365 bases of DNA from assembly GCF_003334405.1 (NCBI RefSeq), contig NZ_QOWM01000068.1; one strand, written 5' to 3'. The stretch comes from Escherichia coli (GTDB lineage: Bacteria > Pseudomonadota > Gammaproteobacteria > Enterobacterales > Enterobacteriaceae). Under the pieces are notes generated by a model that worked only from the letters and a program-made list of their open reading frames with translations, had not been told where the DNA came from and searched no databases. Position 1 is the first letter of the stretch; every line of letters begins with the position of its first letter. This document shows positions 1-365 of the stretch, in pieces. Both the position numbers and the translations under genes were made by a program.

Positions 1-365
1 GCGCTGTTGGTCGCCAGGTAAAGATGCGGGCTTAACCGGATATCCGGCGGCAGCGCCCCCCACAGCCGCGCCAGCGTATGGCCGTCCGGCTGTGCTGCCT
101 TACCACCGCGCACCAGCCACATTGACTCACTGCGGCTGTACACCGCCTCCCCCGGCAGCAGCGGCTCAAAGTGAATGCTCCGCCCGCCGTTGTCGTTGAG
201 TATCAGTCCGTCATCACGTAGCTGTAAGCGGATATCAGAAGGCGCTTTCCAGCCGGGGCCGAAAACGCCCACCGGTGCAGGCGTCTTCGTCCGGTAGCTG
301 CTGTAGGTGCGGGAGAGAATGAACGGCAGCGGGCCGGGCAGCGCAAGGTCCGTCTCGCCGGGCAG
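1..365 (-). CDS. rhs: Internal fragment of an Rhs-family core protein (YD-repeat polymorphic toxin), N-terminal conserved region; partial at both ends
   Basis: Seen in sequence: the reverse-complement frame starting at + position 365 is open for 121 codons with no stop, and the trailing partial codon GC fits the Ala that I recall following ...LATNS in Rhs proteins. All other frames contain stops (for example minus frame 2 hits TGA after about 50 codons, minus frame 3 hits TGA after about 43 codons, + frame 3 stops at 33-35). Recall, not a search: the translation matches the conserved N-terminal region of E. coli Rhs core proteins (RhsA/B/C type), beginning roughly 55-60 residues into the protein, after the PAAR-like motif. 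High G+C (about 66%) also fits the known GC-rich Rhs core. Paralog is not assignable, so the symbol is given at family level only. Confidence 0.85.
   Translation of the reverse strand, partial: MPGETDLALPGPLPFILSRTYSSYRTKTPAPVGVFGPGWKAPSDIRLQLRDDGLILNDNGGRSIHFEPLLPGEAVYSRSESMWLVRGGKAAQPDGHTLARLWGALPPDIRLSPHLYLATNS

Follow-up and report, generated by a model that had tools for sequence, protein, structure and literature searches.

High G+C content of a 365-nt segment of Escherichia coli rhsD as the compositional signature of Rhs cores

A 365-nt stretch of Escherichia coli DNA (assembly GCF_003334405.1, contig NZ_QOWM01000068.1), analysed here over its whole length and called the window below, raises the question of why a piece of an enterobacterial gene should be so much richer in G+C than its host, and of how much this excess tells about the history of the gene. 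The original prediction recognized an Rhs core in the window, and took the composition both as an independent cue to this identity and as a sign of horizontal acquisition. Rhs proteins are polymorphic toxins, in which a YD-repeat cocoon is formed around a C-terminal toxin. The combination of a GC-rich core and an AT-rich tip in their genes has been known since the early 1990s, and it is used routinely for delimiting cores, tips and orphan fragments. The high G+C of the window is this long-described compositional signature of Rhs cores, and as such it is already known and ordinary.

Identity and composition of the window

The window is 100% identical (365/365 nt, megablast) to rhsD of E. coli K-12 MG1655 and of many other E. 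coli, including NZ_CP032667.1, the identical copies being annotated as rhsD or as 'RHS element core protein'. A total of 1975 records match the window at 99% identity or more, and when 5,426 complete E. coli genomes were searched by megablast, 3,761 gave a match, with a median of 3 places per genome and a maximum of 8. Only one of the six reading frames is open; it lies on the minus strand, starts from base 365 and gives a product of 121 aa starting with LPGETDLALPGPLPFILSRTYSSYRTKTPAPVGVFGPGWK. At the K-12 locus (L001), the window corresponds to positions 15001-15365 and rhsD to positions 11256-15536 on the minus strand (1426 codons). The NCBIfam profile NF041261 (RHS_core) matches the window peptide continuously over profile positions 58-178 (254 bits, E = 2e-75) and the full RhsD protein over aa 1-1258 (profile 1-1261) with 2787.7 bits, for a curated cut-off of 2000. 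The Pfam family PF20148 (DUF6531) matches residues 4-66 of the window protein at E = 8e-15 and RhsD aa 46-123 at E = 1e-18. The Rhs identification is thus borne out, both by the full identity to rhsD and by the RHS_core score (2788 bits).

The window is an internal piece of the rhsD core, whose product would, by homology, comprise most of the DUF6531 plug at the N-terminus together with the first shell strands (Table 1). The placement of the residues following the plug in the barrel is suggested by the domain boundaries of the Tse5 toxin (PMC10684867). The YD repeats all lie outside the window, whose extent is limited to the plug and the beginning of the barrel. In the whole of RhsD, YD repeats are recognized by TIGR01643 (YD_repeat_2x, E = 2e-47, 6 stretches), with 20 YD dipeptides, and Pfam RHS_repeat matches are located at aa 209-396. 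The core ends with PLQQIDPMGL (aa 1249-1258), of the PxxxxDPxGL form; TIGR03696 (Rhs_assc_core) covers aa 1181-1258 and is followed by Pfam RHS (PF03527) and the DUF4329 tip. At the other end of the protein, a PAAR_motif at aa 2-29 gave sub-threshold matches only (E = 0.14 and 1.4).

Table 1. Features assigned to the 365-nt window
Feature	Window positions	Strand	Basis
rhsD codons 58-178 (Rhs element core protein, 1426 aa)	3..365	-	sole stop-free frame, 100% identity, NF041261
First two bases of rhsD codon 179	1-2	-	frame from base 365
Most of DUF6531, RhsD aa 58-123, putative 'N-terminal plug' homologue	168..365	-	PF20148 and Tse5 alignment
RhsD aa 124-178, predicted first part of the beta-barrel (YD-repeat shell), following the plug	3..167	-	Tse5 domain boundaries

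The window contains 64 A, 122 C, 118 G and 61 T, so that the G+C of about 66% (240/365) given in the original prediction is exact on recount (65.75%). The 100-nt sliding GC stays between 58% and 70% throughout, and GC1/GC2/GC3 are 0.67/0.53/0.77. The 23 kb around the Rhs element in K-12, element excluded, have 52.7% GC, with single flanking genes ranging from 45% to 59%. As a host sample, 143.5 kb of non-Rhs K-12 DNA were taken from seven chromosomal regions, namely the flanks of the five rhs loci and two arbitrary 50-kb segments. This sample has 51.9% GC, and its 365-nt windows have a mean of 52.0% (sd 4.7) and a maximum of 65.5%. None of its 139,537 overlapping windows reaches 65.75% (z about 3.0; binomial P = 6e-8 at p = 0.519). 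The composition therefore stands well above the enterobacterial background, as had been claimed, and a genome at about 65% G+C throughout, which had been named as the case against this claim, is not what the flanks and the K-12 sample show.

The core/tip step and the limits of the RhsD element

The high GC is a property of the whole 3.8-kb core, beyond the window alone. The core (aa 1-1258) has 63.3% GC, with GC1/GC2/GC3 of 0.66/0.49/0.75 (GC3 75.4%), and the tip (168 codons) has 36.7% GC with a GC3 of 17.9%. As expected from the original prediction, the drop at the core/tip junction is sharp and comes directly after PLQQIDPMGL; in the 300-nt sliding profile, GC goes from about 65% to 35% across rhsD codons 1100-1300. 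The rhsA, rhsB and rhsC genes and the rhsE pseudogene of K-12 follow the same pattern, with cores at 61.3-63.0% GC and tips at 36.8-41.6%. In a Serratia Rhs example, the values are 67.7% for the core and 46.4% for the tip (Jackson et al. 2009, PMC2935791). The GC-rich core, the AT-rich core-extension and the existence of three subfamilies are attributed to Wang, Zhao & Hill (1998) where that work is cited in PMC2935791.

The small ORFs downstream of rhsD are AT-rich too (28-36% GC). On the upstream side, rhsD is separated from the ybbP stop by a 430-nt spacer (L001 15537-15966) with 26-36% GC in 200-nt bins, so that the GC-rich core is bracketed by AT-rich DNA on both sides. Downstream of ybbC, an orphan Rhs fragment (L001 10138-10824) presents a 59% GC spike at 10600-10799, corresponding to a residual core end, and then an AT-rich tip; this fits the 'dissociated tip' arrangement of Jackson et al. 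(PMC2935791).

The ybbC gene itself (122 aa, 30.6% GC) is located 40 nt downstream of rhsD and is annotated as a YbbC/YhhH family protein. By analogy with other Rhs systems, the DUF4329 domain would be the toxin of RhsD, freed by an aspartyl protease at the DPxGL core end, and since the small gene downstream of an Rhs toxin would give immunity, ybbC is a putative immunity gene for RhsD. A search of the NCBIfam profiles with the YbbC protein gave zero matches, and a literature search on the function of rhsD and ybbC returned a genome announcement only. As to determinants of mobility, the annotation of the K-12 locus shows only a truncated HTH pseudogene, ylbG, and neither an integrase nor a tRNA or direct repeat is seen in it; the genes annotated within 15 kb of rhsD likewise include neither vgrG nor a T6SS gene.

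The occupation of the site was followed with a chimeric query, in which the 3' end of mnmH was joined to the 3' end of ybbP, searched against E. coli genomes. In 1857 of the 5421 genomes, mnmH and ybbP are neighbors separated by about 0.7 kb, without an Rhs element between them. In E. coli O145 RM9872, the alignment with K-12 breaks off precisely at L001 8667 and is taken up again at 15961, a 711-bp unrelated spacer replacing 7.3 kb. The boundaries of the element are sharp (L001 8667/8668 and 15960/15961) and coincide with the mnmH and ybbP stop codons. The 7.3-kb RhsD element is a presence/absence polymorphism at a fixed chromosomal site, and both this polymorphism and the atypical composition and codon usage of the element are traits of genomic islands.

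The spacer of RM9872 (L002 1901-2611) has 44.7% GC and carries an annotated dinQ-like type I toxin gene and a palindromic REP-like sequence, which indicates two alternative contents of the mnmH/ybbP site and not a simple empty site. A different situation was seen in the K-12-like E. coli HH97, where a clean deletion of L001 8673-15315 has kept the first 221 nt of rhsD; this remnant (L003 1956-2177) is annotated as a 'DUF6531 domain-containing protein' pseudogene and retains window bases 316-365.

A recent transfer that brought rhsD in between ybbP and mnmH as a discrete island, with a pseudomonad or another GC-rich organism as the donor, would be in agreement with this polymorphism, with the sharp boundaries at the two stop codons and with the atypical codon usage of rhsD, and the nearest solved structure is indeed that of Tse5 from Pseudomonas aeruginosa (E = 7e-122 over most of the core). 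We nevertheless hold such a transfer to be highly improbable, since the closest relatives of rhsD are enterobacterial (rhsA/B/C with 78% nt identity in the window and 78% aa identity over the core, Pseudocitrobacter faecalis with 87% aa identity and E. albertii with 77%), whereas the Tse5 alignment over the window is far weaker (50 bits, 111 aligned residues). The presence of the element in 3761 of the 5426 E. coli genomes argues in the same direction, and so does the origin proposed for the locus. In the scheme of Jackson et al. (2009, PMC2935791), the rhsD locus is position 3 (the ybbA-ybbB site), inferred to be an intragenomic duplication of position 6, the rhsE locus; this duplication is dated after the split from one pathogenic-strain group, B2-like, and the Rhs family as a whole is described as ancient, mostly vertically inherited in Enterobacteriaceae and older than E. 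coli. With a duplication from the rhsE locus and a family of such age, horizontal acquisition fits the deep history of the clade and not the origin of the rhsD copy. The sign of horizontal acquisition seen earlier in the composition therefore stands in part: the polymorphism, the atypical codon usage and the GC-to-AT-biased decay described below are in its favor, but the acquisition would be ancient and would concern the clade, not the rhsD locus.

Amino acids, codons and history in the G+C excess

The coding sequence of the window has 65.6% GC, versus 54.0% for the flanking coding sequences (6,668 codons). When the window peptide is recoded with the synonymous usage of the flanks, its GC is 59.1%, and amino-acid composition accounts for 5.1 of the 11.6 excess points (about 44%) and synonymous choice for 6.5 points (about 56%). 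Gly, Ala, Pro and Arg together make up 37% of the window peptide versus 28% in the flanks, and Phe, Tyr, Met, Ile, Asn and Lys 16% versus 22%; GC2 is 0.53 in the window, 0.49 in the core and 0.41 in the flanking genes. Such values could suggest that the protein alone dictates the composition: a plug and YD-repeat shell rich in Gly, Pro, Arg and Ala would need GC-rich codons, with no history required, and the recoded window remains 5 points over the flanking coding sequences. However, less than half of the excess is explained in this way, and the GC3 of the window is 0.77, versus 0.60 expected under host synonymous usage.

The composition of Rhs genes in other hosts bears on the same point. A peptide-pattern search of genome contigs (QGDMTQY, QYDAWGK) gave 27 loci, few of them enterobacterial, the host GC of the loci outside E. 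coli being estimated from flanks of at most 13 kb. At the 15 loci with usable flanks, the matched Rhs regions range from 27 to 64% GC and from -9 to +12 points relative to these flanks. The distant Rhs/YD-repeat genes (Bacillus, Clostridia, Bacilli, Tenericutes, Bacteroidetes, Chitinophaga and Chloroflexota) have 27-59% GC, and their distance from the flanks ranges from -9 to +9 points with an inconsistent sign; in low-GC hosts they have 27-42% GC and are not consistently above the flanks, which indicates that high GC is not demanded by the protein or its fold. A composition dictated by the protein with no part for history is for these reasons quite improbable; the synonymous excess refutes protein composition as the sole cause, and it is kept as a partial cause in the explanation that we prefer. 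It also qualifies the reading of the composition as a sign of horizontal acquisition, about 44% of the excess coming from the amino acids, not from a nucleotide bias.

The close relatives of RhsD hold about 63% GC whatever the host flank. The Rhs region of E. albertii has 63.8% GC versus 51.8% for its flank (+12 points), and that of P. faecalis has 62.8% versus 56.3%. A second E. albertii match (L014 10001-15016, NBRC 107761) spans 5.0 kb for the 3.8-kb query; even its best frame contains 25 stops, and its GC is only 53.9%. This core is probably interrupted by an insertion or degraded, and its GC difference was left out. An enterobacterial clade-I Rhs core was also observed on the short contigs L011 (1-2724, Oscillospiraceae MAG), L012 (663-3460, Lentisphaerae MAG) and L015 (3-542, Streptomyces griseoloalbus assembly), with 77-97% aa identity to RhsD and 61-64% GC. 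These three, which are among the closest matches of the search, were set aside, contamination or mis-binning being more probable than true hosts, and do not enter the host-range evidence.

The synonymous part of the excess can be followed codon by codon. Relative to the flanking genes, the core is enriched in CGG (36% of Arg codons versus 13%), AGG (9% versus 1% for Arg), GGG (29% versus 18% for Gly), ACG (52% versus 32% for Thr) and GTG (61% versus 42% for Val), and it is depleted in CGT, GGT and ACC. Among the enriched codons, several are seldom used in E. coli (CGG and AGG, for instance), and the depleted ones are its preferred codons. The enrichment in rare codons points to a bias at the nucleotide level and not to a selection for efficient translation; translational selection was accordingly rejected as the cause of the high GC3, CGG, AGG and GGG being enriched and CGT, GGT and ACC depleted. 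The third-position excess of the core consists mostly of G, not C, on the coding strand (CGG, AGG, GGG, ACG, GTG, CTG). This preference for G over C is visible as a negative plus-strand GC skew over window positions 26-200.

The age of this bias can be approached through the divergence of the cores. Between rhsD and rhsA/C, about 40% of third positions and 35% of the codons for identical amino acids differ, and GC3 is 72-76% in both; the raw GC/AT third-position differences are near-balanced (141 versus 111-113). Such a conservation of GC3 over a long divergence implies either that the divergence preceded the entry into Escherichia or that some force has slowed the decay. A divergence of the subfamilies before their acquisition by E. 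coli was argued in Wang et al. (1998), as that work is cited in PMC2935791. In the second case, high GC and GC3 would be actively held in place by GC-biased gene conversion or by selection, acting on Rhs cores that are multi-copy and often recombining ('rearrangement hot spots'). In favor of such a maintenance, GC3 is 72-77% in rhsD, rhsA/C, E. albertii and P. faecalis despite a third-position divergence of 25-41%, the cores are repeated within E. coli genomes (the median of 3 and maximum of 8 places mentioned above), and the excess of E. albertii is as large as that of E. coli, meaning that it has survived since before the split of the species.

Synonymous third-position changes were therefore polarised among four clade-I cores, taken as the pairs rhsD/P. 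faecalis and rhsC/E. albertii, each being the outgroup to the other. We counted 79 GC-to-AT versus 35 AT-to-GC changes (2.3:1), a small set of 18-39 changes between GC and AT per lineage in which parsimony, applied to GC-rich sequences with an outgroup about 40% divergent, inflates the GC-to-AT class. A 1:1 equilibrium is rejected (P = 5e-5), and the counts fit the ratio of 2.0:1 expected for a GC3 of about 0.745 decaying toward the flank GC3 of 0.59 (P = 0.62). This bias, which is only suggestive, speaks more for a gene that was GC-rich ancestrally and is ameliorating slowly than for an active maintenance of its composition. Because the observed ratio agrees with unopposed decay, and because G-ending codons are favored, the rare CGG and AGG among them, which goes against translational selection, we give maintenance in place only a small chance of being correct. 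If it were true, Rhs elements would lend themselves to a natural test of bacterial biased gene conversion within a single genome.

Taken together, these data make it probable that the high GC of the rhsD core is an inherited, family-wide composition of clade I, to which a protein-driven part is added, the core having been acquired anciently and being ancestrally GC-rich, in line with the classical view (Hill laboratory; Jackson et al. 2009); the GC-rich ancestral background and its timing are what we infer from the comparisons above. The 65.8% of the window reflects the value that enterobacterial clade-I cores share across the family (about 61-64%, in a host of about 52%). Just under half of the excess is forced by a protein rich in Gly, Pro and Arg and poor in Ile, Lys, Phe and Met, and the rest is synonymous, carried by G/C-ending, mostly G-ending codons, including ones rare in E. 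coli. The synonymous part is most likely inherited: the lineage of the core may have evolved in, or come long ago from, a GC-richer background, the core may then have spread within Escherichia by duplication or transposition, and its composition would be decaying slowly toward that of the host. The AT-rich toxin tip and the downstream immunity gene would be of separate origin, exchanged through recombination at the point where the conserved core ends, an exchange that would account for the abrupt GC step. A compositional cue read by eye from 365 nt thus flagged an Rhs core correctly, with little import beyond annotation. What the present analysis adds is quantitative: the excess is about half amino-acid and about half synonymous, and the GC-to-AT bias has the size expected for a slow amelioration toward the host.

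Comparison with known Rhs systems

The window is without any difference from RhsD of K-12 (b0497; WP_000014739.1), a member of the RhsD-E subfamily as defined by the Hill laboratory, clade I / locus 3 of Jackson et al. (2009). The setting of K-12 rhsD is common to the gene of the window, with ybbP and mnmH (ybbB) on either side, and ybbC and the orphan core/tip fragment downstream. RhsA, RhsB and RhsC of K-12 (RhsA-B-C-F subfamily) are like RhsD in their architecture, in the PxxxxDPxGL end of the core and in their amino-acid identity over the core (78%); their cores are likewise GC-rich (61.3-61.7%, GC3 71-72%) and their tips AT-rich (37-42%). In the window segment, however, they share only 78% nt identity with rhsD and have 62% GC versus 65.8%, and they differ from rhsD in their chromosomal loci and toxin tips.

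Among solved structures, the top match to RhsD is Tse5 (PA2684, PDB 8cp6), a T6SS-delivered Rhs pore-forming toxin. Residues 11-117 of chain 8cp6_B align with window aa 1-111 (phmmer, E = 3e-12). The genome of its host P. aeruginosa has about 66% GC, and the composition of Tse5 would be unremarkable there. In Tse5, a short PAAR-like N-terminus is followed by a DUF6531 plug and a YD-repeat cocoon, and the encapsulated toxin is released by a C-terminal plug that is an aspartyl protease; the N-terminal plug (residues 48-124) is the part corresponding to DUF6531, and it both closes the cocoon and holds the short PAAR-like fragment in place (PMC10684867). In length, the PAAR-like N-terminus of Tse5 is comparable to the stretch of RhsD in which the PAAR_motif matches are sub-threshold. 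The two proteins are distant and their toxin domains differ, that of RhsD being DUF4329.
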